From a virus (Duplodnaviria > Caudoviricetes): 53,320 bases of DNA. Location: IMG/VR virus record IMGVR_UViG_3300021963_000165, positions 1-53,320 of that record; one strand, given 5' to 3'. The position numbers and the translations under genes are program-made. The stretch's first letter is position 1. Each line of letters begins with the position of its first letter. This document shows positions 1 to 52,877 of the stretch, piece by piece. The notes beneath the pieces were generated by a model. The model searched no databases and was not told the DNA's origin. It saw only the letters and a list, made by a program, of their open reading frames with translations.

Positions 1-126
1 TGCACGATCGGCGGCAAGGGAAGCCGTCACGTCGAAACCGGCGGCCCGTTGCGCTTCAAGCCCGGTTCGGCCGTGGGTCGGTGCTTTGCTGTATTCATAC
101 AGCTTGACGGATCCCTCGGCGCGGGC
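1..126. repeat. Terminal direct repeat (circular-assembly overlap), left copy
   Basis: 1-126 identical to 53181-53306. Confidence 0.95.
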
Positions 127-756
127 CGCTTGCAACGCATCCGCAACGTTTACGCTTTCGCCCGCGTCAACCACAAGCCCGAACCGGCGCCGGATTGTTT
201 GCGCTTCAAGCGGTGAAGCCGGGAAGCGGCGCAAGTGCCATGCCACATCGTCGGTGCCGCGCAAGCGCACGGCAAGCGGCAAGCCATCGGCGGCCGCTTT
301 CGCCCATTGCCGGGCGATCGCCCATAGGATCGCCCGCGAATAGGTTTCAGGTTCGGCGATCATCGCCAGAGTCCGGCGGCCGCGGGCGGTTGCAACGGCC
401 GCGGAAAGCCCGCCGTGTCCCGCCCAAACGAGACAAGCGTTAGAGCAACCGGCCGTTGCCCACGGGCAGGCATTGTGACGGCGGGCGAGCTCGGCCGTTC
501 CGGTTTTGGCGGCAAGGGCGGCAAGGGCGGGAAGGAAAGCCCGCGGCGCAACCGCGGCATCGTTGCCGGGATCGATCGCCGCGGCAAGTGCACGGCCCGG
601 CAACGTGTGATGAATAACGGCCCGAGCGATCGCCGAACCTTTAACTAGTTTGGCGTTGTTGTCAGTTAGCAAGCCGTCAAGCGAAAGCCCGAAACGGGAA
701 AGCATGGCGGAAACATCCGCGGGAAGGGAAACGCGGGAACGGGAAGCGGAAAGCAT
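1..756 (-). CDS. GP88-like phage protein, 5' part (continues across the join into 53180..52878; about 352 aa total)
   Basis: Hand translation from ATG 756: LLTDNNAKLVKG, CPWATAGCSNACL, AVRLRGTDDVAW, LYEYSK; no stop, in frame with 52878..53210; motifs resemble the GP88 family. Confidence 0.75.
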   Translation of the reverse strand, partial: MLSASRSRVSLPADVSAMLSRFGLSLDGLLTDNNAKLVKGSAIARAVIHHTLPGRALAAAIDPGNDAAVAPRAFLPALAALAAKTGTAELARRHNACPWATAGCSNACLVWAGHGGLSAAVATARGRRTLAMIAEPETYSRAILWAIARQWAKAAADGLPLAVRLRGTDDVAWHLRRFPASPLEAQTIRRRFGLVVDAGESVNVADALQAARAEGSVKLYEYSKAPTHGRTGLEAQRAAGFDVTASLAADRA

Positions 757-832
757 GGCGTCAGGATCGAAAGGGAAAGCGCCGGTAAGGGCGGCGGGTG
801 AAACGTGAAACATCGAAAGGCCTTTCCTAGTT

Positions 833-866
833 GCCAATGGTTACAAGATGTGATGTAACCATTGGC
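833..866. promoter_or_regulatory. 13-bp perfect inverted repeat upstream of the GP88-like gene
   Basis: GCCAATGGTTACA-N8-TGTAACCATTGGC. Confidence 0.5.
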
Positions 867-888
867 GACATAAAAGGCAAGGGGAAAT

Positions 889-1077
889 TTAGTCCCGATC
901 GGAAACAATCCAGCGAACCGGCGCCGGTGCCGGTGAGATCAAACCGGCCCGGATTGCGTCGCTACGGGCGGCCGCGGCCTTTTCGGTTTCAAGGTATCGG
1001 GAAAGCACGGCCGAAAGCATGGCGGCCGTATCGGGATCAGTTGCGGCAATCCAGCCGCCCGGAACGCGGGAAAGCAT
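889..1077 (-). CDS. Small leader-region protein (62 aa)
   Basis: Starts at the recurrent GCCATGCTTTCC motif; tiles with neighbours. Confidence 0.55.
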   Translation of the reverse strand: MLSRVPGGWIAATDPDTAAMLSAVLSRYLETEKAAAARSDAIRAGLISPAPAPVRWIVSDRD

Positions 1078-1081
1078 GGCG

Positions 1082-1267
1082 TTAAGAGATGAGATCGGCA
1101 AAGTCGCCCGCTTCAAGGTGACAGGCAAAGTCGGAAAGGAAAGCGTTAAGAGTCGCGGCGGGAAGCCATGAGACAAGCTCGCCGAGCACAAGCTCGGCGC
1201 CGAGATGCTCGGCGAAATCATGCGCGACGACACGCGGCGCCGCGGCGGGCAGAGTGTAGGAAAGCAC
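1082..1267 (-). CDS. Small acidic leader-region protein
   Basis: ORF track; 8 D/E vs 1 R. Confidence 0.6.
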   Translation of the reverse strand: MLSYTLPAAAPRVVAHDFAEHLGAELVLGELVSWLPAATLNAFLSDFACHLEAGDFADLIS

Positions 1268-1273
1268 GACGGA

Positions 1274-1489
1274 TCAAACGAAAGAAATAGGAGAGTCTGA
1301 AAAGCTGCCGGATGAAAATTCTTCTACGGCGTCAATAATGGAATCATCTACCGTTTCGCAATCGCCCGCAAAATAGAGTGAAGCTATTTCATCCATGATT
1401 GCGTCATGATTGCCGGCATGTTCGGCAAGGAAAGCACCATCAACGTCTACGGAAACAACGTGATTAACGTTAAGAAGGAAGCGTGCCAT
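1274..1489 (-). CDS. Highly acidic small protein (DNA-mimic candidate)
   Basis: 71 aa from ATG 1489; 14 D/E vs 1 R, no K. Confidence 0.6.
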   Translation of the reverse strand: MARFLLNVNHVVSVDVDGAFLAEHAGNHDAIMDEIASLYFAGDCETVDDSIIDAVEEFSSGSFSDSPISFV

Positions 1490-1509
1490 AAGAGAGGAAA
1501 GCGAAAGGA

Positions 1510-1746
1510 TCAAACGAAAGCGGGAAGGGCGGCGCCGGTTGCCTGGCAGGCGGGAAGGGCGGCAACGGCCGCGGGATCCTCACCGGGAAGCGTCACGGGC
1601 GCGATGCGATACAGGCGGGCATCGCCGCGGCAAGCGCGATAAAGGCGCAACCGGCGGGCGGCCGTTTCAGCAGTCACAACGGCGGGCGACGCGGGAAGCC
1701 AGCCGGCCGCGGTGCCGCGAAAGGTTTCGATGCGAAAGGAAAGCAT
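1510..1746 (-). CDS. Small leader-region protein (78 aa)
   Basis: Starts at the GCCATGCTTTCC motif within ORF 1510..2058. Confidence 0.55.
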   Translation of the reverse strand: MLSFRIETFRGTAAGWLPASPAVVTAETAARRLRLYRACRGDARLYRIAPVTLPGEDPAAVAALPACQATGAALPAFV

Positions 1747-2048
1747 GGCGGAAAGATAAAAGCGTTTCGATCGGGCCGTTTCGCCCGTTGGTGGAATCAT
1801 GCCGAACCGGCGGCCAGGATCCCGGCACATGTAGACGGTTTCCCAACCGGCCCGCTTGTGCGGTGCTTTCGGGCGGTTGCGAGGGTACGGGCGAACCGAT
1901 CCCGGAAGGGAAAGGAAACGGGCGCCCGCGTGAAACCACACGGCCGGGCGATCCGTCAACCCGTTGTGGCAATCCGAAAGGATCGCCGCGGGCGGCCGAT
2001 AGTGTGCCAAACCGTACGCGGCGAAAGCATACGAAACCGAGCACCAGA

Positions 2049-2143
2049 GTTGGCACACCTAACTAGCTTGCACGGTTGGCACACCTAACCGTGCGCCGCG
2101 CCTAGTGCACCTAACCGTGCACAGGGTAAGTGCACCTAACCGT
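2049..2143. repeat. Four imperfect palindromic repeats (core CACCTAAC), period 26/26/25 bp
   Basis: CACCTAAC at 2056, 2082, 2108, 2133. Confidence 0.85.
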
Positions 2144-2149
2144 TGGAGG

Positions 2150-2219
2150 TTTGTATAAAGAATAAAACAGCACGGTTTGTATTAGTTACAAACAGCACTG
2201 TTTGAGATCTTTATACAAA
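2150..2219. repeat. 70-bp nested imperfect inverted repeat
   Basis: TTTGTATAAAGA...TCTTTATACAAA enclosing AAACAGCAC(G/T)GTTT at 2165 and 2190. Confidence 0.85.
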
Positions 2220-2284
2220 TAGTACAAATGTACGAATAGTACAAATGTACTATAGTACAAATGTACTATAGTAGATATATACTA
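2220..2284. promoter_or_regulatory. Tandem cyanobacterial-type LexA (SOS) boxes, 3 strong plus 1 degenerate
   Basis: TAGTACAAATGTACGA 2220; TAGTACAAATGTACTA 2237 and 2253; TAGTAGATATATACTA 2269; matches AGTAC-N4-GTACT. Confidence 0.7.
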
Positions 2285-2382
2285 ATTACGAAATCAGCGT
2301 GTAATAGGGCGGGCTAAAAACCGCCCCATGCCGTGTGTGAAAAAGGGCCTTAAGAACCGACCCCTTGCAAGTCCCCCGGCCC

Positions 2383-2589
2383 TTAAAAACCGGCCGGCCG
2401 CGAGTCCCCCGGCATTTCAATCCCGAGCTCCTCAGCCGCCTCGAGCAAGTCTTCGTCGCTGGCGGCCATCAGATCGTTGCGGGTCTCGATCATCTGGTCT
2501 TCGAACACATCGCCCCGCTTCACCATGGCGGCCACCATGGCGGCGATCAGGTCAATGCGCTGGTCTTCGGTGAGTGTGGTCTGGGTCAT
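2383..2589 (-). CDS. Small acidic hypothetical protein (paralog of 2586..2780)
   Basis: ATGA overlap with the upstream gene. Confidence 0.7.
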   Translation of the reverse strand: MTQTTLTEDQRIDLIAAMVAAMVKRGDVFEDQMIETRNDLMAASDEDLLEAAEELGIEMPGDSRPAGF

Positions 2590-2780
2590 GAGAGGCGGTT
2601 CCATTCTTCAGGGCATCGGTCGTCGCATTCGCGGCGCAGCTCGCTGTTGCTCAAGCCGGCCAGCCAGGCCTCGGTGTCTGCGATCTGGCTGTCGGTGATC
2701 TCGCCAATCTCGAGCATGGCGTCGAGCATGCTGTCAATGATCCGCACGCGGGCGGCGCGGGTGATGTAGGTGCCGGCCAT
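2586..2780 (-). CDS. Small acidic hypothetical protein
   Basis: ORF track; overlapping start/stop junctions. Confidence 0.7.
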   Translation of the reverse strand: MAGTYITRAARVRIIDSMLDAMLEIGEITDSQIADTEAWLAGLSNSELRRECDDRCPEEWNRLS

Positions 2781-3109
2781 CAGATCAGCCCCAGCAGGCG
2801 CAGCCAGGAGCCATCGGCGTCTGACTCAACGGTGTCGCCATCGGGTGTCTCGCAGCAGGTGTCGAACGTCCAGCGCTCAACGTCCTCCATCGAGGGCACG
2901 GGCCACCAGCGGTTCTGCCAGCGCAGCTTCAGCACCTTGGTGCCGTCCTTGCGGCTGAAGCGGCCGATGGCGCCATCACGCAGGAACTTCTCAACCGTGC
3001 CATCGGGCAGGGTTACGGCATTGATCAGGCGCTTGGGCACGAGGATGTCGTCGCCTTTGCGGCGCACGTTGACCGTGGCCGGGAACTGCAGGTCTTCGGT
3101 GATTTTCAC
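2780..3109 (-). CDS. Hypothetical phage protein (C-terminal CETPDGDTVESD...SWLRLLGLI)
   Basis: ORF 2780..3136; GTG 3109 is the likely start. Confidence 0.7.
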   Translation of the reverse strand: MKITEDLQFPATVNVRRKGDDILVPKRLINAVTLPDGTVEKFLRDGAIGRFSRKDGTKVLKLRWQNRWWPVPSMEDVERWTFDTCCETPDGDTVESDADGSWLRLLGLI

Positions 3110-3134
3110 GGGACTCAAAAGGTAAAGGGGACTC

Positions 3135-3157
3135 AAAAGCTCGGGGGACTCCCCGAG
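3135..3157 (-). terminator. Possible intrinsic terminator
   Basis: CTCGGGG/CCCCGAG hairpin followed by TTTT on the minus strand. Confidence 0.4.
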
Positions 3158-3376
3158 TCAGCGCATCGGGTGGACAGGGGCGGCGCAGCCATTGGCCAGC
3201 AGTTGATCAGCAAGGCGCTCGGCGCTGTCGAACACCATCAGCCAATCCTTAGGCAGCGGCCGATAGCCGATGCTGAGCAGCTCGTTGCGGAGCTCAAAGG
3301 CCTCGCGGTCCCAGCCGGCCAGATGCAAGGCGTCGATGACCTGCTGGGTGTAATTGCGGGTGAGGTACTGGTTCAT
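3158..3376 (-). CDS. Hypothetical protein
   Basis: ORF track; ATG 3376. Confidence 0.6.
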   Translation of the reverse strand: MNQYLTRNYTQQVIDALHLAGWDREAFELRNELLSIGYRPLPKDWLMVFDSAERLADQLLANGCAAPVHPMR

Positions 3377-3452
3377 GGGATAAGTGGCGCTTGCCTGAGG
3401 GAACAGTAAGCCGCCACCCACCCCTCGACTCCCGGAACGTTACAAACTGAAA

Positions 3453-3674
3453 CTATCGGCGGGTGCGGGTGCAGTAGCCGCCCTGCGGATACCAGCCAAC
3501 AGGGCAGCTGTTGCCAACCTTTGCGATCGCTTCCTGCCGGTTCTGGCTGAATGGCACGCAGTAGGCGCCTTGCGGGTAATAACCCACCGGGCAGCTGCCG
3601 CGCTTCACCACAGGCTGCTGAGCCATGGCGACAGACGAGACAAACACAAACGCAAGAGACAGCAGTCGGATCAT
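3453..3674 (-). CDS. Small secreted protein with two CPVGxYPQGxYC repeats
   Basis: Signal-peptide-like N-terminus ending AMA; duplicated Cys motif. Confidence 0.75.
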   Translation of the reverse strand: MIRLLSLAFVFVSSVAMAQQPVVKRGSCPVGYYPQGAYCVPFSQNRQEAIAKVGNSCPVGWYPQGGYCTRTRR

Positions 3675-4015
3675 GGCTTCACGCTCAGGCTGATGTAGGA
3701 CTTCGGGCGATCGGTGGCGACACCGAGCGACTGCTCGTCGAGCTGCATCTGCCGCAGCTGCAGGGCCAGGTGGTCACACACGGCGCTGTAGCTCCAGTTG
3801 TGCCGCTCCTTCTTCACCACCAGGAATCCCTCGGTGGCAATCCGGTCGAGCTGGTGGCGCTGCATGTGCCCCAGCAGAAATTCGCGATCTTTGCCTAGCT
3901 CGGCCTCGAGCTGCTGGATCTGCAACTGCAGGCGCTTGGCGCGGGCGAGGCGGCGGCCAATCGAGCCAGCAGGGCTGTAGGCCCGCTCACGGCGGGTGGT
4001 GGATGAGATGGTCAT
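3671..4015 (-). CDS. Hypothetical coiled-coil protein
   Basis: ORF track; ATG 4015. Confidence 0.65.
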   Translation of the reverse strand: MTISSTTRRERAYSPAGSIGRRLARAKRLQLQIQQLEAELGKDREFLLGHMQRHQLDRIATEGFLVVKKERHNWSYSAVCDHLALQLRQMQLDEQSLGVATDRPKSYISLSVKP

Positions 4016-4104
4016 GGTGCGCAGGTGAATTGCTGAACGCCCCACGAAATTACACGTCAACCAGCCCATGCTCCGCCCCGTGTAACAACCCGTAATAAGC
4101 CCGA

Positions 4105-4293
4105 CTACCGCCGGACCTTCCGCCCTAAATTCCGCTCCACGGTCTGCAGCGCCAGGCCCAGGAAAACCGGAATGGCGCGGGTGCCCGTCTCCCAGCGAGC
4201 GATCGTCACCCGGTCGACACCGAGCTTCTCCGCCAGCTGCTGCTGGGTCAGTTCGAGGCGCTCCCGGAGTGCAGCGAGTTCTTCTTTGGTCAT
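4105..4293 (-). CDS. XRE-family HTH regulator
   Basis: LRERLELTQQQLAEKLGVDRVTIARWETG. Confidence 0.9.
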   Translation of the reverse strand: MTKEELAALRERLELTQQQLAEKLGVDRVTIARWETGTRAIPVFLGLALQTVERNLGRKVRR

Positions 4294-4324
4294 GACAGAT
4301 GTGTAGCCGCTGGCCACAATACTG

Positions 4325-5098
4325 TCAACCGCCCATCACGTCCTTCAGCTTGCCGAACACCAGTTTCGGGAACTCCTGCCCGGCCACCCGGTCGGTGAGT
4401 CCGTAGAAGTCGTAGCGAGTCGCCACGCTCGGCGGGCTGGGGAAATACTTGAACAGCATGCTGATGTCCCGGCCCGAGCGCCGGTAGATGCCGGGCTTCA
4501 AACCCGAGCGGTTGCCAGGCCGCGCCATGAAGTACTCCTTCTTCGGCAACCGCTTCGCCGTGCCATAGCGCCGGTCGACAAAATCGGTCATCGCGCCGAT
4601 CGAATACAGCACCTGGGTGTACTGCCCCGGCGAGATGTTTCCGTATGAATTAAGCCGCGCCGCATCGCTCTGGCGGATCGGCAACATGTACGACCCAGAA
4701 GGTGTGAAACCTCGCCGGGCGAGCGCCTTGCTGAAGCGCGTGTCATAAACCTGCTTGGCGCCAGCCCCCGGCTCCTTCACCTGCGGGAAAAGGTATTTCG
4801 ATGCCGGGTTGCCCTTTGCACCGAACTCCTTGACGCCGATATACGAATACAGCTTCTGTTTGTCGGACTTCGTATAAAAAATCGAGTTCAACGTGAACGG
4901 CACCGGGTTACGAAACACCCGCTGCATTTCGCTTCGGTGCGCAGCCTGCAGGACCGGGCCGAGCTTGTTGAGCGCGTAGCTCATCACAAAGGGCATCTGC
5001 ACCCGGCGCACGATGTCCAGGTTCTTCACCACCGCGTCGGCGTCGAACGTGATCGAGCCCTGGCGGTAGACGCCACTCCCGGAGAAGGTGATCGCCAT
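4325..5098 (-). CDS. Putative virion morphogenesis / tail completion (gpZ-like) protein
   Basis: QMPF..SYALN...FRNPVPFTLNS motif typical of this family. Confidence 0.55.
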   Translation of the reverse strand: MAITFSGSGVYRQGSITFDADAVVKNLDIVRRVQMPFVMSYALNKLGPVLQAAHRSEMQRVFRNPVPFTLNSIFYTKSDKQKLYSYIGVKEFGAKGNPASKYLFPQVKEPGAGAKQVYDTRFSKALARRGFTPSGSYMLPIRQSDAARLNSYGNISPGQYTQVLYSIGAMTDFVDRRYGTAKRLPKKEYFMARPGNRSGLKPGIYRRSGRDISMLFKYFPSPPSVATRYDFYGLTDRVAGQEFPKLVFGKLKDVMGG

Positions 5099-5165
5099 CG
5101 GCGGCTCCTACGAAAAGACCCCGCCATGCAATCGGGGTCCGGTGGTCCTCTCATCCAGGGCGAGT

Positions 5166-5375
5166 CTAAGCGGTTCTGACGTTCCGCGCATCCCCGCAGA
5201 GCACCAGTCGCTGCTCCTTGCCCACCCAGACGGCCCCACGATCGCCCTGGAGGCCCTGCCAGGTGCCTGAGGCCCACTGAGAGCCCATGTAGACCTTCAC
5301 GGCCGCTCCACGGGGCAGGGACGGCCACCTGGTGGGGCTGGCGGCGAGGCGCTGGTAGTCAGAAGGGCTCGGCAT
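5166..5375 (-). CDS. Hypothetical protein
   Basis: ORF track; co-oriented with neighbours. Confidence 0.6.
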   Translation of the reverse strand: MPSPSDYQRLAASPTRWPSLPRGAAVKVYMGSQWASGTWQGLQGDRGAVWVGKEQRLVLCGDARNVRTA

Positions 5376-5384
5376 GGGCTTGGC

Positions 5385-5630
5385 TTAAGCCGTGCGCGAA
5401 ACTTTCACGCCACCGTCGATGACATTGACGCTGAACGCACAGCCCAGTCTTTGGCCAAAGCGGTTAGCGGTCACACGGATCGAAGAAAGACAACGGCCGT
5501 CTTTGTCTCGCCCATTGCTCATCGGGACAACAAAGGCATCGCCGACGCCGAGCTGCTCAAGCGGCCAGTCGATCACCTTCCGGCGGGATCTGGTGGGGAT
5601 CGAGTCAGCTCGGATGATCTGGTAATCCAT
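5385..5630 (-). CDS. Small putative DNA-binding protein
   Basis: WPLEQLGVGDAFVVP...GVKVSR; ATG 5630. Confidence 0.6.
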   Translation of the reverse strand: MDYQIIRADSIPTRSRRKVIDWPLEQLGVGDAFVVPMSNGRDKDGRCLSSIRVTANRFGQRLGCAFSVNVIDGGVKVSRTA

Positions 5631-5694
5631 GAGACGCTTCAAGAAACAGGATGAAGCGTAGCGGAAATGCGGCAACCGGGCGCCATGAGGGGCC

Positions 5695-5950
5695 TGTAAC
5701 AGCTGTGACGCTTTGTGACGGTCACCGTTACACCCAAACCCCTTGCAGGACAAGGGTTGTAACGCTGTAACAACTAATCCTACTCTTAAAGATAGTAGTA
5801 GTAGGGGTTCAGGGGGTCTGTAGGGCTATATATCTCTATGGGGCTTTCCTGGAAAAAAGCGTTACAAGCGTCACAAACGTCACAACCGTTGCGCCGCAAG
5901 GGTTTTCAGCGAAACGCTCACTGTTTCACGGAGCCCCAAACCGTTACACA
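5695..5950. other. Putative replication origin
   Basis: Mostly convergent TGT(A/G)AC / GT(T/C)ACA repeats around an AT-rich core, next to the primase-helicase gene. Confidence 0.55.
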
Positions 5951-8532
5951 GTCTCAAGCGTCTCAAGTGGGACCAACGTTGCGCGTGCGACGCCGCTGCC
6001 CTTGAACCGGACCGTTCCGTTACTGACCGAGGCACCAGTTAGCCGCCTCAAGGACTGCCGATAGGCGTTACCGGCCCACGGCGTGTCTTTGAGCAGGGCC
6101 TGCAGGTTGGTGCTGTTGTTGGCGACCGCCAGGGCACCACCGGCCACCTTCAGGCCGTAACGGCCGAGGATCGTCTCGATCTCGTCCGAGGGGTGATCAC
6201 GGCCGGGGATGGCGAAGATCACGCCGCGCTGGGCCATCTGCACCAGCTCGAGCACCGACATCTTCCGGGAGCCGTCCACCTGGATCAGGGACTGGAGGAT
6301 GTGGTTGATGCACTTCATCTCATCCGCGTCGGTGGCATCCACCTCGCGGCTTTCCCAGTCCATCATGTTGATCCACTCGATGGCCTGCTGCAGCGAAAGT
6401 TCGCCACCGCCACCGGGCTCGAGCGTCCAGGCACCGGCCAGCAACGTGCCGTGCTGATCGCCAAATCGCTGCCCGAAGCGCCGTGCAAGTGCAGCTGCGA
6501 GCGTCTTGGCATTCTTGCGAATGACGGGGATCTGCTGAATGGTTCTGGCGACAAGTTGCCGGCCGTTCTCTTCAGTGCAGGCGTTAAGAATCTCCTGCTC
6601 GAACTCGTTCCAGTCGTCCTTGTCCATGTGGTCTTTGCGTAGACCAAGGATGCAAAAACGATCGAGGTCAGCCCGCTGAATGAGGGCGACGTTGATGGAA
6701 CTGACGCAGAACATCGAGCGGATCTCAAAGGTGTTGGATCCGCCGTTGGTGGTGCCCTTGTAGATCTTGCCGCCTTCGGATGATGCGATCCGGGCAAGGG
6801 CGAGGATGTTCTGGACGACCTGCTTGTCCTTCTGTTCGTTCTGCTCGAGCTCGTCGAAAACGACCGGGATGGCGTCTGAGCGCAACTGACCGCGGAGGCC
6901 GGCTTCGGTAGTGCCACCGGTTGCACCCTCGAACATGCCGCCCAGCAGGGGCTTCATGAAGTGTTTGAGGATGGTGGTCTTGCCGGTGCCGGCACCGCCG
7001 GTGATCCAGACGTGCGGCCGCCAATCAAGAGAACCGCAGACGGGTGCCAGGACGATCCAGCCGAGCAGCAGGTTGGCTGAGGCGGGTGTTTCCCAGCGGA
7101 AGCGCTCTGCGATCAGGCGCACCTTGGCGCAGAGGTCATCAGAGAGCACCTGGCCGCCGGGGCCGTCGATCGCTTTGGCGTTCTCGTAGAAGTAGTAGCT
7201 CTTGAAGCCGGCCGGCAGCTTGGTGATGGGGTGCGAGCGCCCGTCGATCACGAGGCGGTTGCCGAGGTGCAGGATGACGCGGGAGGCATCAGCCCAGGCG
7301 CCGCGCCCCCGCACCCGGGAGGGGTCATAGACACCCTGGGAGATGCAGGAACCGAGGATGGCATTGACGGCCGAATCCCAGTCGATGCGGCCTTTGTCGT
7401 CGCCGAAACCGTTCGCCCACCACTCGAGGGGAGCGAGTGTCAGGAAGTGGCTCTTGTTGTGCTGAGCCGCGGTGAGTGCCACGACCTGGCAGGCCGCTGC
7501 GGGCAGGTAGTAGTAGATGCCGTGATCGAAGCCGAGGGGGCGGAAGGGCAGGCTGCTGGCGGGCTCGGGCTCGGGCTGCGGATCGATGGGGGCCGGTCGC
7601 GGTGGGAGCTGTCGCAGCTCCGGCGGCCCCGGCATGATCCGCCGTGGTGCCCGGTAGCCGTGCTCCTTGGCCCAGTACCAGAAGGTGCCGGCGGTGACTT
7701 CTGCGCCACCGGAGCCGGCCACCTGATCGATGCCGCGCCATTGCGGAGAGTGACTGGCCATCATCGAGATGGCGGTCTCAGCCGATGACCCGGTTTCCTG
7801 ACAGGCCCTGATCAGCCCCCAGAGAATGTTGCGGTACATCGGGTAGGTGTTGCCACCTGGCACCCGAGGCGGGATGCAGGAGAGGGCTTTCTGGATCTCG
7901 TCGAGCCCTTGGGTTTCGTAATCGGTAAAGGTCCGGGCCGCGACGTGACGCTGCACGATCTCTGGCTCGGGCAGCCGGGCGGCTAGATCAGCAAGGGTGT
8001 AGCGGGCGTCGGATTGGTGGATGATCGCAGCCTGCTCGCCGGTCTCGGGGTGTGGCGTGCCTGGCAGCCGCATGACCCTCGATGGGTTCTTGAGCTGGCG
8101 ATCGGCGTCGGCGTAATCGAGCAGTCGGGTTTGAACGGGTTTCCACTGCTCGGGCGATACCGGCTCGGAGAGGATCCAGTAGTTGTGGATGGACTTGCCA
8201 CCGGTGTCGACCTGCAGGCTGGGCTCCGGGAGTCCAAGGTCTTGCCAGGCGGTTACCTGCCAGTCCTTGGGTTTGTCATCCCACTCACAGAACAGGGCGA
8301 TGCACTCGGTGATGTCGGCATCCTTATCACCGCCGTTGTTGACGACGACATAGACGCCGCGCTTGTCGGCCACCCAGGACTCGACCAGCTGCTTGGTGGG
8401 CTCACCTTTGGCGCCGTGATCGTCGGCTTTGCGTGGATCGGTCTTGGCGTAGAAGCCACGCAGGCGGATGGCGCCTTTGGGCTTACCGAGAGCAGCTAGG
8501 AACTGGCGAGCGGCGTCGAAATCAGCGTGCAT
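5944..8532 (-). CDS. Primase-helicase (RepB-like primase, PriCT domain, P-loop helicase)
   Basis: TGGKSIHNYW, KNPSRVMRLPG, Walker A GGAGTGKTT, Walker B VVFDE. Confidence 0.85.
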   Translation of the reverse strand: MHADFDAARQFLAALGKPKGAIRLRGFYAKTDPRKADDHGAKGEPTKQLVESWVADKRGVYVVVNNGGDKDADITECIALFCEWDDKPKDWQVTAWQDLGLPEPSLQVDTGGKSIHNYWILSEPVSPEQWKPVQTRLLDYADADRQLKNPSRVMRLPGTPHPETGEQAAIIHQSDARYTLADLAARLPEPEIVQRHVAARTFTDYETQGLDEIQKALSCIPPRVPGGNTYPMYRNILWGLIRACQETGSSAETAISMMASHSPQWRGIDQVAGSGGAEVTAGTFWYWAKEHGYRAPRRIMPGPPELRQLPPRPAPIDPQPEPEPASSLPFRPLGFDHGIYYYLPAAACQVVALTAAQHNKSHFLTLAPLEWWANGFGDDKGRIDWDSAVNAILGSCISQGVYDPSRVRGRGAWADASRVILHLGNRLVIDGRSHPITKLPAGFKSYYFYENAKAIDGPGGQVLSDDLCAKVRLIAERFRWETPASANLLLGWIVLAPVCGSLDWRPHVWITGGAGTGKTTILKHFMKPLLGGMFEGATGGTTEAGLRGQLRSDAIPVVFDELEQNEQKDKQVVQNILALARIASSEGGKIYKGTTNGGSNTFEIRSMFCVSSINVALIQRADLDRFCILGLRKDHMDKDDWNEFEQEILNACTEENGRQLVARTIQQIPVIRKNAKTLAAALARRFGQRFGDQHGTLLAGAWTLEPGGGGELSLQQAIEWINMMDWESREVDATDADEMKCINHILQSLIQVDGSRKMSVLELVQMAQRGVIFAIPGRDHPSDEIETILGRYGLKVAGGALAVANNSTNLQALLKDTPWAGNAYRQSLRRLTGASVSNGTVRFKGSGVARATLVPLETLETV

Positions 8533-9024: not shown

Positions 9025-10392
9025 TCATGCTGCGCGTTGCTTGCGCTGTCTGGCCGCCAGCACATGCCGCGCCCAGCCATGTGGTGATTTCATTCCGCGG
9101 CGCCGGCCGATCTCGATGAGCTGCTCGAGGGTTTGCGCTTTGCCCTGCTCCTGGCGCTGCTGCCGGCGAAGGGTGTCGGGATCGAGCTCCACCAGCTCGC
9201 CATCACGCTCCTCAGGGCCTGATGCCACCGCCTCGCGTCGGTATTCATGCCCGCAACAGGGGCAGACGGGTGCTGGTGGGTGGCAGGCGTAGCAGCTGGG
9301 GCATTCTGTGACGGCTGGGGCCTTGCCGCCCTTCTTGGGTTTCGCGTCGAGGGTCCACTCGCGGGGATCTTGCGGAAAGCCGTGGGTGAACACACAGGAG
9401 GCGTGATCGAGAACGATGAGGTCGGGTTTACCGGGTGCGATGCGAAGGCCGCGGCCGACCGACTGCAGGTACATCGTGAGCGACTTGGTGGGTCGCAGCA
9501 GGATGACGCAGCCGATCTCGGGGCAGTCCACACCGGCGACCCAGAGGGCGCAGTTGCAGACGATGTCGATAGTTCCGCGGCGCAGACCGGTCAGCGCGGC
9601 CTGGCGCTCTTCACGGGTGGAGTTGCCGGAGATTGCAACAGCGCGGTAGCCGGCCTGGGTAAAGGCAGCAGCTGTGTGTTCTGCGTGCTTGATGTTGACG
9701 CAGAAGGCGACTGCACGGCGACCGTGGGCGTATTTGCGGTAGTGAGCAACGGCGTCACCAATGATGGAGGGCTTGTCGACGGCCTCGGCGAGCTGGTTGA
9801 GGGCGAAGTCACCCGCTTGGGTGCGGATGCCGGTTAAGTCTGGCTTGGTGGGGGCGTAGTAGCGGATGGGTGCGAGCAGGCCCTCGGCGATCAGGTCACC
9901 GGTGGAGCAGGTGGGGATGATGGTGTCGAACAGCTCCCCGAGGCCGCGGCCATCGAGACGCGCCGGTGAGCCAGACAAGCCCAGCAGCGGCGGATTGCCA
10001 GCGGCTTCGATGACCTTCTTATAGGTCTCAGCCACGGCCAGGTGGCACTCGTCGACGATGATCAGCCCCGGCGGCTTCACCACCGGCCTGCGCACTGCGG
10101 TCTGCACCGAAACCACCTGCACCGGCTTGAACGGGTTGCGGGGCATGCCGGCCATGATGAAGCCGTGCGGGATTTCGGCCTGCTCGAGGCGCCGGGCGGT
10201 GTCGTCGAGAATCTCGCGCAGGTGAGCGAGGAACCAAACATCGTTACCGCGTTGGACGGCGGATTTGATGATTTCTGCTGCTGTGTGGGTTTTGCCGAAA
10301 CCGGTTGCTGCGCACAGCAGCGGCGCTCGATAGCCCGCTCTGTAAGCTGCCCGGACATCTTCGATTGCCTTGATCTGACGTGGTCTAAGCAT
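9025..10392 (-). CDS. SF2 DEAD/DEAH-box helicase with Zn ribbon
   Basis: ATGFGKT, DECH, QSVGRGLR, CPSC...CPCC. Confidence 0.92.
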   Translation of the reverse strand: MLRPRQIKAIEDVRAAYRAGYRAPLLCAATGFGKTHTAAEIIKSAVQRGNDVWFLAHLREILDDTARRLEQAEIPHGFIMAGMPRNPFKPVQVVSVQTAVRRPVVKPPGLIIVDECHLAVAETYKKVIEAAGNPPLLGLSGSPARLDGRGLGELFDTIIPTCSTGDLIAEGLLAPIRYYAPTKPDLTGIRTQAGDFALNQLAEAVDKPSIIGDAVAHYRKYAHGRRAVAFCVNIKHAEHTAAAFTQAGYRAVAISGNSTREERQAALTGLRRGTIDIVCNCALWVAGVDCPEIGCVILLRPTKSLTMYLQSVGRGLRIAPGKPDLIVLDHASCVFTHGFPQDPREWTLDAKPKKGGKAPAVTECPSCYACHPPAPVCPCCGHEYRREAVASGPEERDGELVELDPDTLRRQQRQEQGKAQTLEQLIEIGRRRGMKSPHGWARHVLAARQRKQRAA

Positions 10393-10551
10393 GGGTCTTG
10401 ACCGCTGTGGTCAGCAATGGATAAATCAAAAAGTCGAGCAATCATAAACACTTAGCCGGTAAATGGCGTGAAGTGCGAAGAAATGCGACAAGGGAGATCG
10501 AAGGTGGATGAACTAGCGGTAAAGTCTGATCCACAGACACAAGACCAGCCT

Positions 10552-11373
10552 ATGGGGCTGACCAATGCGGAGTACCACGCGAGGCCCGAAGTCTCGAAAA
10601 GTGGGCTCGATCTAGCGCGGCGTTCACCGCTGCATTTCTGGAACCGCTATCTGAATCCCGATCGTGCGGTTGAGCCACCGACCGATGCGATGGTGCTGGG
10701 TTCTGCCCTGCATGCGCGGGTGCTGGAACCGCATCTGTACGAGGACGAGTACATCGCCGCACCGGAGGGCATCGACCGCCGCACCAAAGAGGGCAAGCTG
10801 CGGTGGGCGGATTTCGAGGCCGAAGCTGACGGCAAGATCGTGCTGAAGGCTGAGGATGCTGCCCGGATCGAGGCCATGGCCCAGGCGGTGCATCGCCACC
10901 CGGCGGCGCGGATGATCCTGCGGCTGCCGGGCAAGTGCGAGCAGTCTTACTTTTGGACTGATGAGACCAGCGGCGAGAACTGCAAATGCCGGCCTGACTG
11001 GCACAGCGACGACCGGCGGCTGATCGCTGACGTGAAGACCACCGAGGATGCGAGTCCCCGTGGATTCATCCGTTCAGTGATGAAATATCGGTATCACGTT
11101 CAGGCGTCGTTTTACAGTCAAGGCATTGGAGCCGATCAATTTTTGTTTATCGCAGTCGAGAAGAAGCCTCCTTTCGCAGTTGCGGTATACGCAACCCCGC
11201 CTGAGCTCTTGGAGCGAGGATTCAAAGAGGCTGTGGAAGATCTGCGACTCATCGCCACATGCCGGGTCGAAAATCGATGGCCCGGCTACGGCGACGAAAT
11301 CCAATCTTTGACTGTCCCAAATTGGCTCTCAGACGAGCCGTCCGAAAACATTGCCGAGATCGAAGGTTTCTAA
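10552..11373 (+). CDS. RecE/exonuclease VIII-like PD-(D/E)xK nuclease
   Basis: NAEYHA..EVSKSGL, GSALHA, KCRPDW, DVKTT, YHVQASFY. Confidence 0.88.
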   Translation: MGLTNAEYHARPEVSKSGLDLARRSPLHFWNRYLNPDRAVEPPTDAMVLGSALHARVLEPHLYEDEYIAAPEGIDRRTKEGKLRWADFEAEADGKIVLKAEDAARIEAMAQAVHRHPAARMILRLPGKCEQSYFWTDETSGENCKCRPDWHSDDRRLIADVKTTEDASPRGFIRSVMKYRYHVQASFYSQGIGADQFLFIAVEKKPPFAVAVYATPPELLERGFKEAVEDLRLIATCRVENRWPGYGDEIQSLTVPNWLSDEPSENIAEIEGF

Positions 11374-15227: not shown

Positions 15228-15406
15228 TCCATCAGCAGGAGCTCCAGCCTGGCAATCTCGTTGACGGCCTGCTGGAGCTGAAACTGCTGCTGACAGCACA
15301 GCCTGTAGAGCATTGCAGTACGAGGATCCTCCCTGCGTGCAACGGTTTCAACTGCCCATTTTTCTTCTGTCGTCATTTCAGCTTGAAGCCACTCGCCGAA
15401 CGTCAT
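15212..15406 (-). CDS. Small hypothetical protein, opposite strand to its neighbours
   Basis: MTFGEWLQAEM...QQAVNEIARLE; fills an otherwise empty gap. Confidence 0.55.
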   Translation of the reverse strand: MTFGEWLQAEMTTEEKWAVETVARREDPRTAMLYRLCCQQQFQLQQAVNEIARLELLLMDYSNN

Positions 15407-15884
15407 GGAGTTCAACAGCGATGATTTATCAACGCTAGGCACGCCTGTCTGTGAGCACAACAACCGATTTATCCGTGAATCGCGACCTCGCACTGATGGC
15501 CTGATCCGCCGCCGGTGGGAGTGCCGCGACTGCGGCGAGCGCTGGACGGTGTTCGGGCCTGATCGCAAGAAACGCCGCCGGCGCCGCAAGCCAGGCAAGC
15601 CACACCCGAAGCTGAAGCTCGAACACGTCCGCCGTGCGCTGATCGATCGGGAAACCTCGGATGTGAAGCTGGCGGCCGAGCTCGGTGTGTCGCGCCAGGC
15701 AATCCAGCAGATTCGTGCTGGCAAGACCTGGACGAAAGTGTTTCCGAACCTGAAGCGGCGGCCGCAGTGGCGCGATTGCACCGAATGCCGCCACTGGGAA
15801 GGCGATGGCTGCGGCCTGGGCTTCCCGGACCCGCTCGAGGAGGGCGTCGGTTTCGCCGTCGATTGCGATCTTTACGAAGTGTGA
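15405..15884 (+). CDS. Zn-ribbon + HTH + 4-Cys domain protein
   Basis: RRRWECRDCGERWT, LAAELGVSRQAIQQIR, CTECRHW. Confidence 0.75.
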   Translation: MEFNSDDLSTLGTPVCEHNNRFIRESRPRTDGLIRRRWECRDCGERWTVFGPDRKKRRRRRKPGKPHPKLKLEHVRRALIDRETSDVKLAAELGVSRQAIQQIRAGKTWTKVFPNLKRRPQWRDCTECRHWEGDGCGLGFPDPLEEGVGFAVDCDLYEV

Positions 15885-16409: not shown

Positions 16410-16617
16410 CGACATCGACTGGGACAGCTGCCCGGACAAGATCTGGGATCAGCTGCTCGAGCAGGCGCCCAAGGTGGCAGCCATCAGCCGGTTCTGGTTC
16501 CTGAAGGGGATCCACCGCGCTGTCACCGAGATGGAGCGCAAGATCGACGGCCGGCCGATGTGGCCCACCCGTCAAGACCTCATCGATCATCTCAACTCAA
16601 TCAATGCACCCAACTGA
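16366..16617 (+). CDS. Hypothetical protein
   Basis: ATG 16366 within ORF 16297..16617. Confidence 0.55.
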   Translation: MTLNEALSPWMSVRDDIDWDSCPDKIWDQLLEQAPKVAAISRFWFLKGIHRAVTEMERKIDGRPMWPTRQDLIDHLNSINAPN

Positions 16618-16993
16618 AGACGATTTTCGGCTGATCCCGGAAACTGCCAAGTACATGTCAGTCCGCACGCAGAACGCCCTGCTGCGGGGTGGCTTCTTTA
16701 CCGCTGAGCAGATCATGCTGGCCAGCACCGCCGACCTGATGAAGCTCAGGAGCTTCGGCATGCAGGCACTGGGCGAGGTCGCTGCCTGGCGCGATGCGCT
16801 GATGAAGCCCGACCCGACGCTCTACCGCGAGACCCACGAGGCCGTCACCAAGGCACTGAACGAGTGCGGCAGCTGCATGGCCGACCAGGAGGCCGTGGTG
16901 GCGATGAAGGTGATCTGGAATCGGATCGCCCGGGGGCCGTTCACTGCTGCCCGGATCCGTCAGATGCTGATGCCGGCAGAGGTGGAGGCGTGA
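16604..16993 (+). CDS. RNA polymerase alpha-CTD-like domain protein
   Basis: MSVRTQNALLRGG...DLMKLRSFGMQALGEV matches the alpha-CTD pattern LSVRS.NCL...LL...NFG.KSL.EI. Confidence 0.8.
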   Translation: MHPTEDDFRLIPETAKYMSVRTQNALLRGGFFTAEQIMLASTADLMKLRSFGMQALGEVAAWRDALMKPDPTLYRETHEAVTKALNECGSCMADQEAVVAMKVIWNRIARGPFTAARIRQMLMPAEVEA

Positions 16994-17771: not shown

Positions 17772-17976
17772 CTGCCACCCCCGCGAAGAACAGAAGAAGG
17801 CCGAATTTATCGACTTTCTTTATGAACAGAGCGGTCGCGATGAACTGCCTTATGGCCACCCGCTGCGCATGACCTACACCGGCCTCTGGCAGGAATTCAT
17901 GCAACGCAGTGCTGAAGAAGCGCGTGACGCTTGGTGGGACGTGCGTCAGATTGATGCAGAAGCATTCGATCGATGA
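17740..17976 (+). CDS. Hypothetical phage protein
   Basis: DFLYEQSGR....HP...TYTGLW motif. Confidence 0.65.
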   Translation: MHAHLLDTMFDCHPREEQKKAEFIDFLYEQSGRDELPYGHPLRMTYTGLWQEFMQRSAEEARDAWWDVRQIDAEAFDR

Positions 17977-18539
17977 ACAACGACTACGACCGCGACCGAC
18001 CACAACAGCTGATCGGGATCTATAGCCCGGCGCCGCAATCCGGCAAGACGTTCACCGCCACCGTGCTGACCCACCAAGGGTTCCAGCCGGTGTCATTTGC
18101 CGAGCCACTGAAGCGCATGGCGGTGACGTTTTTGATGGATTTCGGCTACCGCGAGGACGAAGCCTTGAAGCTGGTGTGGGTCGACAAGCACCGCCAGGTG
18201 CCTGAAATCGGCTGCACGGCTCGCGAGCTGCTGCAGCGCCTCGGCACTGAATTCGGCCGCCAGTGCATCGCTGACGACATCTGGATTCGGTGCTGGGAGA
18301 CACGGGTTCGGCGCTTCGACACGGTTGTCACCGACGACGTGCGTTTCCTCAACGAAGCAGAAGCGGTCAAGGCGCTCGGCGGCCAGATGTGGAAGGTTGT
18401 GCGGCCGTCGGCTGTTCGCAACACCGATCACGCATCTGAAGGCGGACTGGACAATTGGGACGGATTCGATGTCATCATTCAAAATGACGGCAGCCTTGAA
18501 CAATTCCGTCGCAAGATCGACGCGGCCTTATGGGGATGA
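17973..18539 (+). CDS. Deoxynucleoside monophosphate kinase
   Basis: SPAPQSGKT, SFAEPLK, RELLQRLGTEFGR, DDVRFLNE, HASE. Confidence 0.9.
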   Translation: MNNDYDRDRPQQLIGIYSPAPQSGKTFTATVLTHQGFQPVSFAEPLKRMAVTFLMDFGYREDEALKLVWVDKHRQVPEIGCTARELLQRLGTEFGRQCIADDIWIRCWETRVRRFDTVVTDDVRFLNEAEAVKALGGQMWKVVRPSAVRNTDHASEGGLDNWDGFDVIIQNDGSLEQFRRKIDAALWG

Positions 18540-19998: not shown

Positions 19999-21150
19999 AT
20001 GGCACTGCGGAAGGAAGACATCAAGGCCGCTGTCAAGAGCAAATCGGAGGGCTGGCTGAAGGATGAGAAGGTGGCCGGCCTCGGCGTGCTGATCACCGCC
20101 AAGGGCGCCGCGACCTGGTATCTGCGCTACCGCCTGCCGGACGGAAAGCAGGAGAAGCACAAGATCGGCCCAGCGCTATCCATCCCGCCGGAGATGGCCC
20201 GCGACGAAGCGCACAAGGTGCTCGGTGGGGTGGCTAAAGGCGAAACACCTACCAAGGATCGCCGCACGGTGCGCCGCGGCAAGACCGTCGCTGAGCTCTG
20301 CGAGATGGTGAAGGCCGAGCACTACGCCAAGCGCCGCAAGAACACCGTCGTCGGCTACATGGTGCTCTGGAACAACTGGATCCTGCCTGAGATCGGCTCC
20401 ACCAAGGTCGCGAGCCTCGAGACGCTGCAGGTGGTCGACCTGCTCAAGAAGATGCCGAAGACCCAGGCCAACCGGGCGCTGGCGGTGCTGCGCAAGGCGC
20501 TGAACCTGGCCGAGCTGTGGGGGCTGCGGCCGAAGTTCTCCAACCCCTGCAAGGGCATCGAGGGCAATGGCGAGCGCAAGATCAAGCGCTACCTAACCCG
20601 CGACGAGCTGGACCGGCTTCTCAAAGCACTGGATACGTTCGGCACGACCCCAGTGCGCTGGCGTTTTGCCCAACTGGTGCGGCTGCTGCTTCTGACGGGG
20701 TGCCGGGTGGGCGAGATCAAGAATGCTCGCTGGGAATGGCTCGACGACGAAGCAATGGTGCTGACTGTTCCCGCTGAGGAACATAAGACCGGCCAGGACG
20801 GTAACCCACGGATAGTTCATATCCCGCCCGAAGCGTGTCTCATCTTAAAAGAAATGAGACGCAAGTCGAATTCTGACTGGATTATTCAGGGCGATGGTGA
20901 TCACCCATTGGTGGGATATGCCCGCCTGTGGAGCAAATTGCTGGTCGCCGCGCAGATCAAGAACCTGCGCATTCACGACACGCGACATTCCTACGCCAGC
21001 TACGCCATCAGCAAGGCGAAGCTGACCCTCCCGGAGGTTGGTGGGCTGCTGGGCCACGCCAGCCCGCAGACAACGCAGCGCTACGCACACCTGATCGACG
21101 AGGCTGCCGCCAAGGCTGCTGCGATGGTGGCGGCGCAGCTGCGGCGCTAA
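19999..21150 (+). CDS. int: Tyrosine integrase with N-terminal arm-binding domain
   Basis: LLTGCRVGEI, HKT, RIHDTRHSYAS, LLGH...TQRYAHL. Confidence 0.95.
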   Translation: MALRKEDIKAAVKSKSEGWLKDEKVAGLGVLITAKGAATWYLRYRLPDGKQEKHKIGPALSIPPEMARDEAHKVLGGVAKGETPTKDRRTVRRGKTVAELCEMVKAEHYAKRRKNTVVGYMVLWNNWILPEIGSTKVASLETLQVVDLLKKMPKTQANRALAVLRKALNLAELWGLRPKFSNPCKGIEGNGERKIKRYLTRDELDRLLKALDTFGTTPVRWRFAQLVRLLLLTGCRVGEIKNARWEWLDDEAMVLTVPAEEHKTGQDGNPRIVHIPPEACLILKEMRRKSNSDWIIQGDGDHPLVGYARLWSKLLVAAQIKNLRIHDTRHSYASYAISKAKLTLPEVGGLLGHASPQTTQRYAHLIDEAAAKAAAMVAAQLRR

Positions 21151-21449
21151 TCCTCCTCGGTGTACCAGGGGCTCGGCTTGTAGCCGGGCTCCAGTTCATC
21201 GGTGAGCACCGGCTGCACCTGGCGCTGGATGATCATCTCGTAGAGGGTCGCGTAGGCGATCACCTCCTTCAAATGCTTGGACAGCGCCTCATATTCGCTC
21301 TGGCCGACCACGCCGATGTCGTTCTCCTGGTCGGCGTAGCAGAGAAACATCATGGCCGCCTCCTTTGGGCGGCCGTCTGCAAACAGCTCGTAGGCCATGG
21401 CCAGCCCCTCGCGTGGGCTCAGTTCGCCGTTGCGAGAGGCAAATCTCAT
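21147..21449 (-). CDS. Hypothetical protein
   Basis: ORF track. Confidence 0.65.
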   Translation of the reverse strand: MRFASRNGELSPREGLAMAYELFADGRPKEAAMMFLCYADQENDIGVVGQSEYEALSKHLKEVIAYATLYEMIIQRQVQPVLTDELEPGYKPSPWYTEED

Positions 21450-52497: not shown

Positions 52498-52826
52498 GGT
52501 TACAGGTTTACAGTCTTGGTTGACGCTAGGACCACAAACCCAGTCTGGAAGGGTAGTCTGGTCGGTTGCCTCGTTCTCGGGGAAAGGGGTGTCTTTGCGT
52601 GAGACTCACAAGACCAGAACTAACTTGCAAAAATCGTGCCTAGGAAAATACTGGGATTCGAATCAACCCACGAGTGCTGCGGCCCAACAGGACCCAATTG
52701 CAGTATCACGCTAGCGTTATGCCGTGGGGCCAGGGGCCGGCCGGCCGCCGATCGGGCGCCGCAATCCGCCAGGCGATCGCCCGCGGATTGCCTGGCAAGC
52801 GAAAGCCCGCCGATAGGGCGGGCATG

Positions 52827-52851
52827 AAAAAGCCGCCCGGTTAAGGGCGGC
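52827..52851 (-). terminator. Intrinsic terminator after the GP88-like gene
   Basis: GCCGCCC-N6-GGGCGGC then TTTTT on the minus strand. Confidence 0.65.
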
Positions 52852-52877
52852 CGTTTCGCTTTCGGCTTCGTCGCCTG

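Follow-up and report, generated by a model that had tools for sequence, protein, structure and literature searches.

IMG/VR virus record IMGVR_UViG_3300021963_000165 (Duplodnaviria; Caudoviricetes), analysed here over its full 53,320 nucleotides and hereafter called the window, carries at positions 2045-2284 a gene-free array in which tandem iterons, a 70-bp inverted repeat and four 16-bp boxes follow one another. In our reading the phage is a temperate siphovirus, picocyanobacteria are its probable hosts, and the array is its control region; in functional terms, the array would be a putative SOS-gated promoter/operator complex. It faces a small operon in which three small open reading frames (ORFs) are followed by a GP88-family gene and a conserved terminator. 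We assign this reading a probability of roughly 0.5. All three motif types are confined to the array site within the 53-kb sequence, and the guanine-cytosine (GC) content falls to 0.43-0.49 over 1951-2400 as compared with about 0.63 elsewhere. The original prediction, which was made from the letters of this DNA, had described three stacked blocks at this place, and the present analysis confirmed them. Its suggestion of a multi-protein docking platform or master control region gained substance from two results: one block consists of consensus sites for host LexA, and the three-part array is kept in place in relatives.

The four abutting boxes of block 3 are well supported as predicted binding sites for the host SOS repressor LexA. 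Their 14-nt cores (2221-2234, 2238-2251, 2254-2267 and 2270-2283) were compared with the cyanobacterial consensus AGTACWNWTGTACT / RGTACNNNDGTWCB, the former being the LexA box derived by Li et al. (PMC3091678). Read in order, the boxes are AGTACAAATGTACG, AGTACAAATGTACT, AGTACAAATGTACT and AGTAGATATATACT, with 1, 0, 0 and 2 departures from the consensus; the two central ones are the only perfect matches to AGTACNNNNGTACT in the window, and the flanking ones at 2221-2234 and 2270-2283 carry 1 and 2 mismatches, respectively. As the genome-wide count at ≤2 mismatches does not exceed chance (8 matches vs 6.5), the signal lies in the clustering and in the perfect matches. Sites of lexA and recA in marine Synechococcus and Prochlorococcus listed in the same paper include GGTACAAATGTATT and AGTACACATGTACT, the first of which stands upstream of lexA in both groups (PMC3091678), and a second paper describes an SOS-type LexA regulon in marine Synechococcus (PMC3744912). 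Searches of all six frames of the window for LexA_DNA_bind (PF01726) and Peptidase_S24 (PF00717) returned 0 matches, so that a host protein is the likely ligand of the boxes and the phage appears to lack a self-cleaving repressor.

Comparison with relatives, which are cited below by L and G numbers, revealed the array at the same place rather than absent or elsewhere. With the last of the small early ORFs on one side and the GP88-family gene on the other, the three-part arrangement occurs in L024 (2 iterons, 2-3 palindromes, 4 boxes), L026 (3 iterons, 4 palindromes, 4 boxes), L046 (at least 6 iterons, within which the contig breaks) and L028 (5 boxes and the proximal palindrome, with different downstream repeats). 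In a five-way alignment, the spacing from the last LexA box to a TTTGTATAAAG-like stretch and on to the palindrome AAACAGTGCTGTTT is fixed; this palindrome, read on the minus strand and nearest to the LexA sites, is invariant in 5/5 aligned relatives, whereas L024 has changes in each arm of the central palindrome. A 22-mer that reaches across two boxes was recovered, as an exact match, from 13 IMG/VR contigs with GC contents from 0.39 to 0.62, always in tandem at a 16-bp period. For the wider family, defined as 52 IMG/VR loci encoding a homolog of the 257-amino-acid protein at 4325-5098, LexA-like boxes were counted at ≤1 mismatch with 50 block shuffles as control: 62 were found vs 12.8 ± 3.9 in the shuffles (maximum 21), with at least one box in 26 loci and at least two in 17. 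These boxes lie downstream of the gene for the 257-amino-acid protein, after 2-4 same-strand copies of ACTTGCRRGGGGTCGGTTTWWRGG (2315-2410 in the window), and the first box follows the last ACTTGCRRGGGGTCGGTTTWWRGG repeat by 32-95 bp in 14 of the 15 loci that have both, the window included and L041 being the exception. Neither a LexA-like cluster nor the GGTCGGTTT repeat was found in Synechococcus phages S-LBS1 and S-H1.

Palindromes of the form TGAGAAT-N-ATTCTCA are likewise enriched in the family (36 at ≤2 mismatches, as compared with 1.7 ± 1.4 for shuffled sequence). A LexA-like box is found no more than 150 bp away from 19 of these 36, and the window has none of them. Other clades interleave their boxes with these palindromes, and up to 6 LexA-like boxes occur per relative. 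The palindrome resembles the classical 7-1-7 Fur box and is a candidate site of that kind. Clusters of this Fur-box-like kind stand beside the boxes in L033, L034, L035, L040, L048 and L062 (e.g. L048:6959-7107 and 9128-9200); another such cluster follows at a distance of 2-3 kb, and its place in L026, L028 and L029 is immediately upstream of the cos motif. The ACTTGCRRGGGGTCGGTTTWWRGG repeat is nearly invariant across phages of GC 0.37 to 0.66 (e.g. L036:6750-6900, L049:6790-6890). For the 257-amino-acid protein by which the family was defined, neither a Pfam family nor a PDB sequence match was found, and structural comparison gave no convincing fold match (Foldseek E ≥ 0.47, best VIA Z 5.6).

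Clustering of the boxes is associated with the presence of an integrase. An integrase was found in 5/5 genomes with clustered boxes, namely the window and the complete relatives G001-G004, in which 4/6, 4/4, 2/2 and 2/2 of the box matches are clustered at the array site, and in 0/4 relatives without box clusters (G005, G006, G008 and G009 at 71% completeness). As the five positives are related to one another, this is to be read as an association and not as five independent events. The integrase-less relatives retain the GGTCGGTTT repeats, the TTTTCACACAC stretch, an AT-rich palindromic stretch and 24-26-bp iterons (3 to about 30 copies, phage-specific); since the scaffold is thus present without boxes, the LexA boxes look like an insertion into an older, pre-existing scaffold. 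The combination expected of a LexA switch, an integrase together with the absence of an S24-type repressor domain from the six frames, is found in the window. Lysogeny appears rare in unicellular cyanobacteria according to the S-LBS1 paper (PMC6157547).

PHROG and Pfam scans of the window revealed the gene content of a siphovirus (Table 1). Its terS, TerL, portal, capsid, tail, helicase, VRR-NUC, SSB and endolysin proteins share 30-57% identity with those of S-LBS1, described in its paper as a freshwater cyanosiphovirus with an integrase (PMC6157547), and the best cultured-phage match of the primase-helicase is S-H1. The sequencing runs in which the stretch occurs are marine, estuary and freshwater metagenomes. 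On the basis of this S-LBS1/S-H1 homology and of the aquatic runs, a picocyanobacterial host is likely, though not proven. A TerL scan of genome contigs returned a single distant match, in a Pyrinomonadaceae metagenome-assembled genome (36% identity), and no host or prophage copy. Positions 1-6000 gave no match to cultured phages by blastn and nothing near thresholds in Rfam, the array alone gave only chance matches to cultured phages at E up to 10, and no tRNA genes were found in the genome.

Between boxes and iterons, block 2 combines perfect 12-nt outer arms (2150-2161 and 2208-2219) with 17-nt inner arms (2165-2181 and 2187-2203, 82% complementary) and contains two AAACAG-NN-C(T/G)GTTT palindromes (2165-2178 and 2190-2203). 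Matches to AAACAGCNCTGTTT at ≤2 mismatches, both strands counted, number 6 in the window, 4 of them in the array, with a chance expectation of 0.9 and 0/100 shuffles reaching 6. Folding of the block as single-stranded DNA gave -17.5 kcal/mol (z -7.96), a value reached by 0/200 shuffles; for the minus-strand RNA the value was -27 kcal/mol (z -8.27), and on the minus strand a 17-bp hairpin followed by a U-rich tail would form. A -10-like hexamer sits 5 nt downstream of LexA box 1. It reads TATAAA in the window, L026 and L046, TACAAT in L028 and TGTCAA in L024, and in L049 and L050 the last box is followed by TATAAT or TATATT.

Read along the minus strand from the boxes, the order of elements is the -10-like TATAAA, the palindromes, the iterons, a conserved leader block, three ORFs, the GP88-family gene and a terminator. 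The three ORFs are small and poorly conserved, with a single weak PHROG match (phrog_14769, unknown function) and partial or absent homologs in relatives. The GP88-family gene (PF17338) spans the junction of the assembly; at least 51% identity is kept among the 120 metagenome homologs listed (478 with E ≤ 0.001), and the L024 copy is located at 10238-11317. Its product has three invariant cysteines (Cx6Cx3C). An AlphaFold model (predicted local distance difference test, pLDDT, 88) has as best structural neighbours radical-SAM enzymes, including spore photoproduct lyase and QueE, at weak scores (Z 5.2-6.6); a Foldseek search with the model gave no match, and a literature search on PF17338/GP88 yielded nothing relevant. 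A hairpin with a T-run follows within about 30 nt of the GP88-family stop codon in 6/6 genomes (window, L024, L026, L027, L028 and L029). The original prediction had treated the stretch up to the array as a leader whose composition ends there. The compositional boundary was borne out, as the purine-rich plus strand of about 450-2100 stops at the array; the leader itself was not, since the odd composition of 1-2050 belongs to the small minus-strand operon and not to a non-coding leader. Five plus-strand copies of GAAAGCATGGCG within 698-1750 correspond to CGCCATGCTTTC on the minus strand, with the consequence that several minus-strand ORFs start with MLS..., some of them twice in frame; CATGCTTTCC recurs in L028.

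Under the proposed mechanism, LexA dimers in the undamaged cell or lysogen would cover about -13 to -76 of a leftward minus-strand promoter with its -10 element at TATAAA 2215-2210. Upon DNA damage, RecA-stimulated cleavage of LexA would free this promoter, and the transcript would then cross the palindromes and the four iterons, the three small ORFs and the GP88-family gene and stop at the terminator before cos. As an integrase is present and a self-cleaving CI/LexA-type repressor is not, DNA damage would likely act on the lytic switch by way of this operon, one product of which, possibly anti-repressor-like, could relay the signal. Palindromes and iterons may serve as sites for clade-specific DNA-binding proteins and thus add a second, phage-specific layer of control, for example as operators or roadblocks downstream of the start.

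Several observations weigh against this reading. A scan of 1400-2700 for sigma-70 consensus promoters returned 0 sites, a -35 element is lacking, and L024 has a degenerate form of the -10-like hexamer. The stretch was found in no RNA run, so the start site, direction and inducibility of the transcript are deduced from the DNA. The operon products carry no anti-repressor signature in PHROG and Pfam scans, and the GP88-family gene is present in integrase-less relatives too. Two GC-rich proviruses (G007 and G010, GC 0.66-0.68) have an integrase and no boxes; their homolog of the 257-amino-acid protein shares only 26-28% identity, and different hosts are possible for them. Relatives that appear to be lytic also have those parts of the module that are not LexA sites, among them iteron arrays with as many as about 30 copies, which means that the core function of the region may be unrelated to SOS. 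The host assignment is based on phage homology and box type, and in some cyanobacteria LexA has been reported to have no role as SOS regulator, as stated in PMC3091678.

The strongest rival is an iteron-type replication origin, in which a phage protein would bind the iterons, the AT-rich palindromic stretch including the boxes would unwind, and LexA would only modulate firing, e.g. through an SOS-dependent origin or transcriptional activation; we regard this as possible but doubtful. The four iterons of block 1 start at 2045, 2071, 2097 and 2122 (spacing 26, 26 and 25) and are 73-100% identical across 22 nt, with the core GCAC(AC)CTAAC, which reads CACGGTTAGGTG(C/T)GC on the minus strand; 3/4 window matches to GCACCTAACCGT-like sites fall inside the array. 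Four palindromic units of about 26 bp had been predicted here, and the description stands for units 1, 2 and 4, in which a partial dyad of the GTTRG-N5-CTAAC type is found, and is slightly too generous for unit 3, which has the right half only. The same core is repeated in L024 (2x), L026 (3x), L046 (at least 6x) and L031 (about 8x), and other relatives carry 24-26-bp iterons of different sequence in 3 to about 30 copies. In ori-lambda and iteron origins, four dyad-symmetric repeats stand beside an AT-rich stretch. The window resembles them in having four such repeats, with a period of about 24-26 bp, followed by a stretch of 25-45% GC with a large palindrome in a 63% GC genome. Tandem repeats beside an AT-rich stretch, the hallmark of such an origin, are present; the array is single-copy, the replication module with its helicase and primase-helicase ends at it, and iterons of this period recur beside an AT-rich palindromic stretch with or without LexA boxes. 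It differs from these origins, however, in not lying in or beside an initiator gene, none being recognisable next to the iterons, and in the distribution of the repeats: L027 and L029 have primase-helicases 84-86% identical to that of the window and yet no tandem iterons at the site, whereas in L031 the iteron core of the window goes together with a primase of only 40% identity. The iterons are therefore not a general feature and do not vary in step with the primase, and the roughly 30 copies in L060 are far above known origins. The fixed spacing of box, -10-like element and palindrome, together with the integrase link, fits transcription control better.

Two candidates for an iteron-binding protein were considered and given up. 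The window, L024, L026 and L046, which have GGTTAGGTG iterons, also encode a helix-turn-helix (HTH) protein (window 4105-4317), which L027-L029 lack; as L031 has the same iterons without such a gene in the locus and L028 keeps the proximal palindrome without it, the co-occurrence is broken and the protein was dropped as a firm binder. The primase-helicase was rejected since the iterons do not co-vary with it in L027, L029 and L031. Long 26-bp iteron arrays occur at L060:9960-10730 (about 30 copies), L057:9340-9680 (about 14) and L044:8245-8505 (about 10), and the iterons of many relatives have a GTGA-N4-TCAC-type core, the period remaining constant at 24-26 bp while the sequence varies between phages. 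In S-LBS1, CCTAACC / GGTTAGG repeats, whose core resembles the window iterons, crowd the non-coding end before terS (L078 34237-34641), a segment that also holds a direct repeat of about 120 bp; the repeats are not mentioned in the searched passages of the S-LBS1 paper (PMC6157547). In L031, L039, L043, L044, L045, L055 and L057, the position taken in the window by the small HTH gene, just after the gene for the 257-amino-acid protein, is occupied by a gene for a 240-256-amino-acid protein that comprises only the adenylation domain of an NAD-dependent DNA ligase; 4/4 of these 7 relatives that were checked are without integrase.

A broader proposal, rather unlikely and offered tentatively, is that a widespread group of uncultured picocyanobacterial siphoviruses has in common a modular 'sensor board' close to the right end of the genome. 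Its fixed scaffold would combine GGTCGGTTT repeats and 24-26-bp iteron arrays with an AT-rich core of palindromes, and different lineages would plug into it sites for host stress regulators (LexA for DNA damage, Fur-like boxes for iron); these would replace a CI-type repressor, decide between lysogeny and lysis and possibly gate a promoter-coupled origin.

The original prediction had also named a transcription-factor sponge. Replicating sites would then titrate host LexA, a Fur-like regulator in relatives, and phage regulators, and thereby derepress SOS and iron genes or buffer the levels of these proteins. Four or more abutting consensus boxes do exceed what a single promoter needs, relatives interleave up to 6 boxes with TGAGAAT-N-ATTCTCA palindromes, and iteron copy number is highly variable. 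A pure sink, however, has no need for boxes whose place and distance from the -10-like element and from the operon are constant, and the integrase association indicates control of lysogeny and not a lytic take-over; we consider a sponge unlikely.

Mapping of the physical genome ends bears on the two remaining explanations. Between the two ends of the window (1-140 and 53181-53320), 136/140 positions agree, the first 126 being identical. Although the record is classed as 'linear', the contig thus represents a circular assembly with a length of about 53.18 kb; the cut falls inside the GP88-family gene. Logan contigs on 51800-53320 from two sequencing runs (X1 and X2) stop at 52668 and 52656 and so overlap by 13 nt, and in a third run (X3), which holds a relative, the left piece also stops at 52668. 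The IMG/VR contigs L026, L029 and L039 end at the motif ...GGGTCC...GG(T/G)T(A/G)(A/G)ATTCG(A/G)AT, 250-300 bp after the GP88-family gene, and in the window (52640-52700) a conserved GGGTCC...GGGAC motif precedes the 13-nt cohesive end. The motif GGTAATTCGAGC occurs at both ends of the Pseudomonas phage F10 record; homologs of the 257-amino-acid protein are the last gene before cos in F10-like Pseudomonas phages and, in F10, the last before terS. The cos site lies about 160 bp upstream of terS. With the ends at 52656-52668, the array is neither cos nor at a genome end, and the leader premise falls on this count too, as the window start is an assembly junction and not a genome end. Contig ends near arrays were rejected as physical ends, because L025 and L046 break inside tandem repeats.

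The injection stop signal of phage T5, a group of direct and inverted repeats at a distance from one end that amounts to a few percent of the genome, lies inside long terminal direct repeats, where the DNA of the first transfer step ends, and this two-step transfer depends on pre-early proteins. An injection-pause role for the window array had been predicted on this model. In such a reading, array-bound proteins would halt DNA entry until the genes of the terminal segment are expressed. The array is indeed a repeat cluster at a similar relative distance, with 2.57-2.81 kb between it and the right cohesive end, which is presumably packaged last and ejected first by analogy with lambda, and the terminal segment holds small, fast-evolving ORFs of unusual composition. 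The window phage, however, is a siphovirus related to S-LBS1 with lambda-like packaging and 13-nt cohesive ends, and no long terminal repeats of the T5 type were found, the 126-140-nt contig overlap being the assembly junction inside a gene, which also removes the premise from which the idea started. Moreover, the terminal operon reads toward the end from a promoter that would enter last, and LexA boxes are limited to integrase-bearing members. The position near the right cohesive end, a coincidence, makes a role in DNA entry formally conceivable, but no finding supports such a role, which we consider very improbable. A packaging site, either cos or a pac site with binding repeats for the terminase small subunit, is scarcely credible: terS has an N-terminal HTH and CCTAACC-core repeats lie just upstream of the S-LBS1 terS (39% identical to that of the window), but contig stops, IMG/VR ends and the F10 termini place cos at 52656-52668, about 2.6 kb from the iterons.

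The coordinates of the array and of its surroundings are collected in Table 1. On the side of the boxes facing away from the operon, the ACTTGCRRGGGGTCGGTT(T/C)TTAAGG repeat gave 4 matches vs 0.33 expected, and a GC-rich hairpin may be the end structure of the upstream early operon; covariation in this hairpin is weak, 5/6 pairs being changed on both sides in at least 1 of 7 sequences in a poor alignment.

Table 1 Features of the array, its flanks and the phage genome, in window coordinates.
Feature	Position	Strand	Basis or remark
Block 1, four ~26-bp tandem iterons	2045..2143	.	direct-repeat search, Tandem Repeats Finder (TRF) score 82
Block 2, 70-bp AT-rich inverted repeat	2150..2219	.	inverted-repeat search, folding, motif scan
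Block 3, four abutting 16-bp LexA-type boxes (predicted sites)	2219..2284	.	TRF 4.1 copies, 90% matches, score 95
-10-like hexamer TATAAA	2210..2215	-	read from sequence; inferred promoter element only
GC-rich hairpin, loop with last GGTTTTTAG copy	2304..2329	-	inverted-repeat search
Three copies of family-wide repeat ACTTGCRRGGGGTCGGTT(T/C)TTAAGG, then conserved TTTTTCACACAC	2315..2410	-	motif scan
Conserved leader block GGTTGACGGATCGCC...TGGTT... between iterons and first ORF	1921..1961	-	kept in window, L024, L028
Three small, poorly conserved ORFs (1746-1510, 1489-1274, 1077-889)	889..1746	-	ORF search
GP88-family gene (PF17338), ~360-379 amino acids	1..756 + 53180-52878 across junction	-	
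Intrinsic terminator directly after GP88-family gene	52827..52852	-	read from sequence
cos, 13-nt cohesive end GGTTGATTCGAAT	52656..52668	-	contig stops, shared motif
terS, lambda-type TerL, portal, capsid-protease fusion, tail genes, endolysin		-	PHROG/Pfam
Helicase, in module running down to array	9025-10392	-	PHROG/Pfam
Primase-helicase, in module running down to array	5944-8532	-	PHROG/Pfam
Exonuclease, RecT-like protein, SSB		+	PHROG/Pfam
Tyrosine integrase	19999-21150	+	PHROG/Pfam

Further genes of the window were recorded in passing. For the ORF at 16604-16993 there is a match (E 7e-6) to the alpha subunit of RNA polymerase, in its C-terminal domain, and the ORF at 15405-15884, also present in S-LBS1, combines an NrdR-type zinc ribbon with an HTH_3 domain. 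A deoxynucleoside monophosphate (dNMP) kinase, a thymidylate-synthase-like protein and a dCTP deaminase are encoded at 17973-18539, 21446-22177 and 22165-22713, respectively, and the N-terminal part of the primase resembles the primase-polymerase of cyanophage S-2L; modified DNA bases in the window phage are a possibility. A 9-bp tandem repeat, AAGCGTCAC x 3.7, occupies 5857-5889 in a lower-GC gap just downstream of the primase-helicase gene.

Among known systems, the closest parallels to an SOS-gated operon are LexA-repressed anti-repressor modules. Coliphage 186 with its tum gene and the Salmonella Gifsy prophages carry such modules, and their phage repressor is not self-cleaving. The window would share with them a host LexA site, predicted here, at a separate small operon away from the integrase that would relay the damage signal; it differs in that no anti-repressor homolog was detectable, in having four abutting cyanobacterial-type boxes instead of one or two, and in the stacking of the site with palindromes and 26-bp iterons. 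In Bacillus thuringiensis phage GIL01, host LexA serves as the prophage repressor (PMC6182141). Like GIL01, the window phage is probably temperate, lacks a classical CI repressor and has (predicted) LexA sites on its genome, whereas GIL01, a small tectivirus, has its LexA sites at both the early and the late promoters and encodes LexA-like accessory proteins of its own, and the window phage has no LexA_DNA_bind domain and a single clustered site. The SOS boxes of cyanobacterial lexA, recA and umuCD, as given in PMC3091678 and PMC3744912, follow the same 14-nt consensus as those of the window, and a 'tandem repeat structure' of sites is noted for cyanobacterial LexA boxes in the former (PMC3091678). 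They differ in that the window's boxes lie on a phage genome, four in number at a 16-bp period, and that those of its relatives are interleaved with Fur-box-like palindromes. A literature search at the level of titles and abstracts, at which absence is not proven, found no report of LexA boxes on cyanophage genomes. New with respect to known LexA switches are the host phylum, the box type, the four abutting boxes, the iteron scaffold and an apparent exchange of regulator sites between lineages.

Lysogeny and induction in marine and freshwater picocyanobacteria are poorly understood, and the array gives them a concrete, if predicted, wiring: integrase-bearing relatives of S-LBS1 have clusters of LexA sites at one control region and no cleavable repressor of their own, and the integrase-less ones are without such clusters. 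Tandem TAGTAC-N4-GTACTA boxes after GGTCGGTTT repeats provide a signature by which such phages may be found in metagenomes, and a 13-nt cos site is now defined for the phage group. If the sensor-board proposal were true, the phage genome would read the physiology of its host directly.

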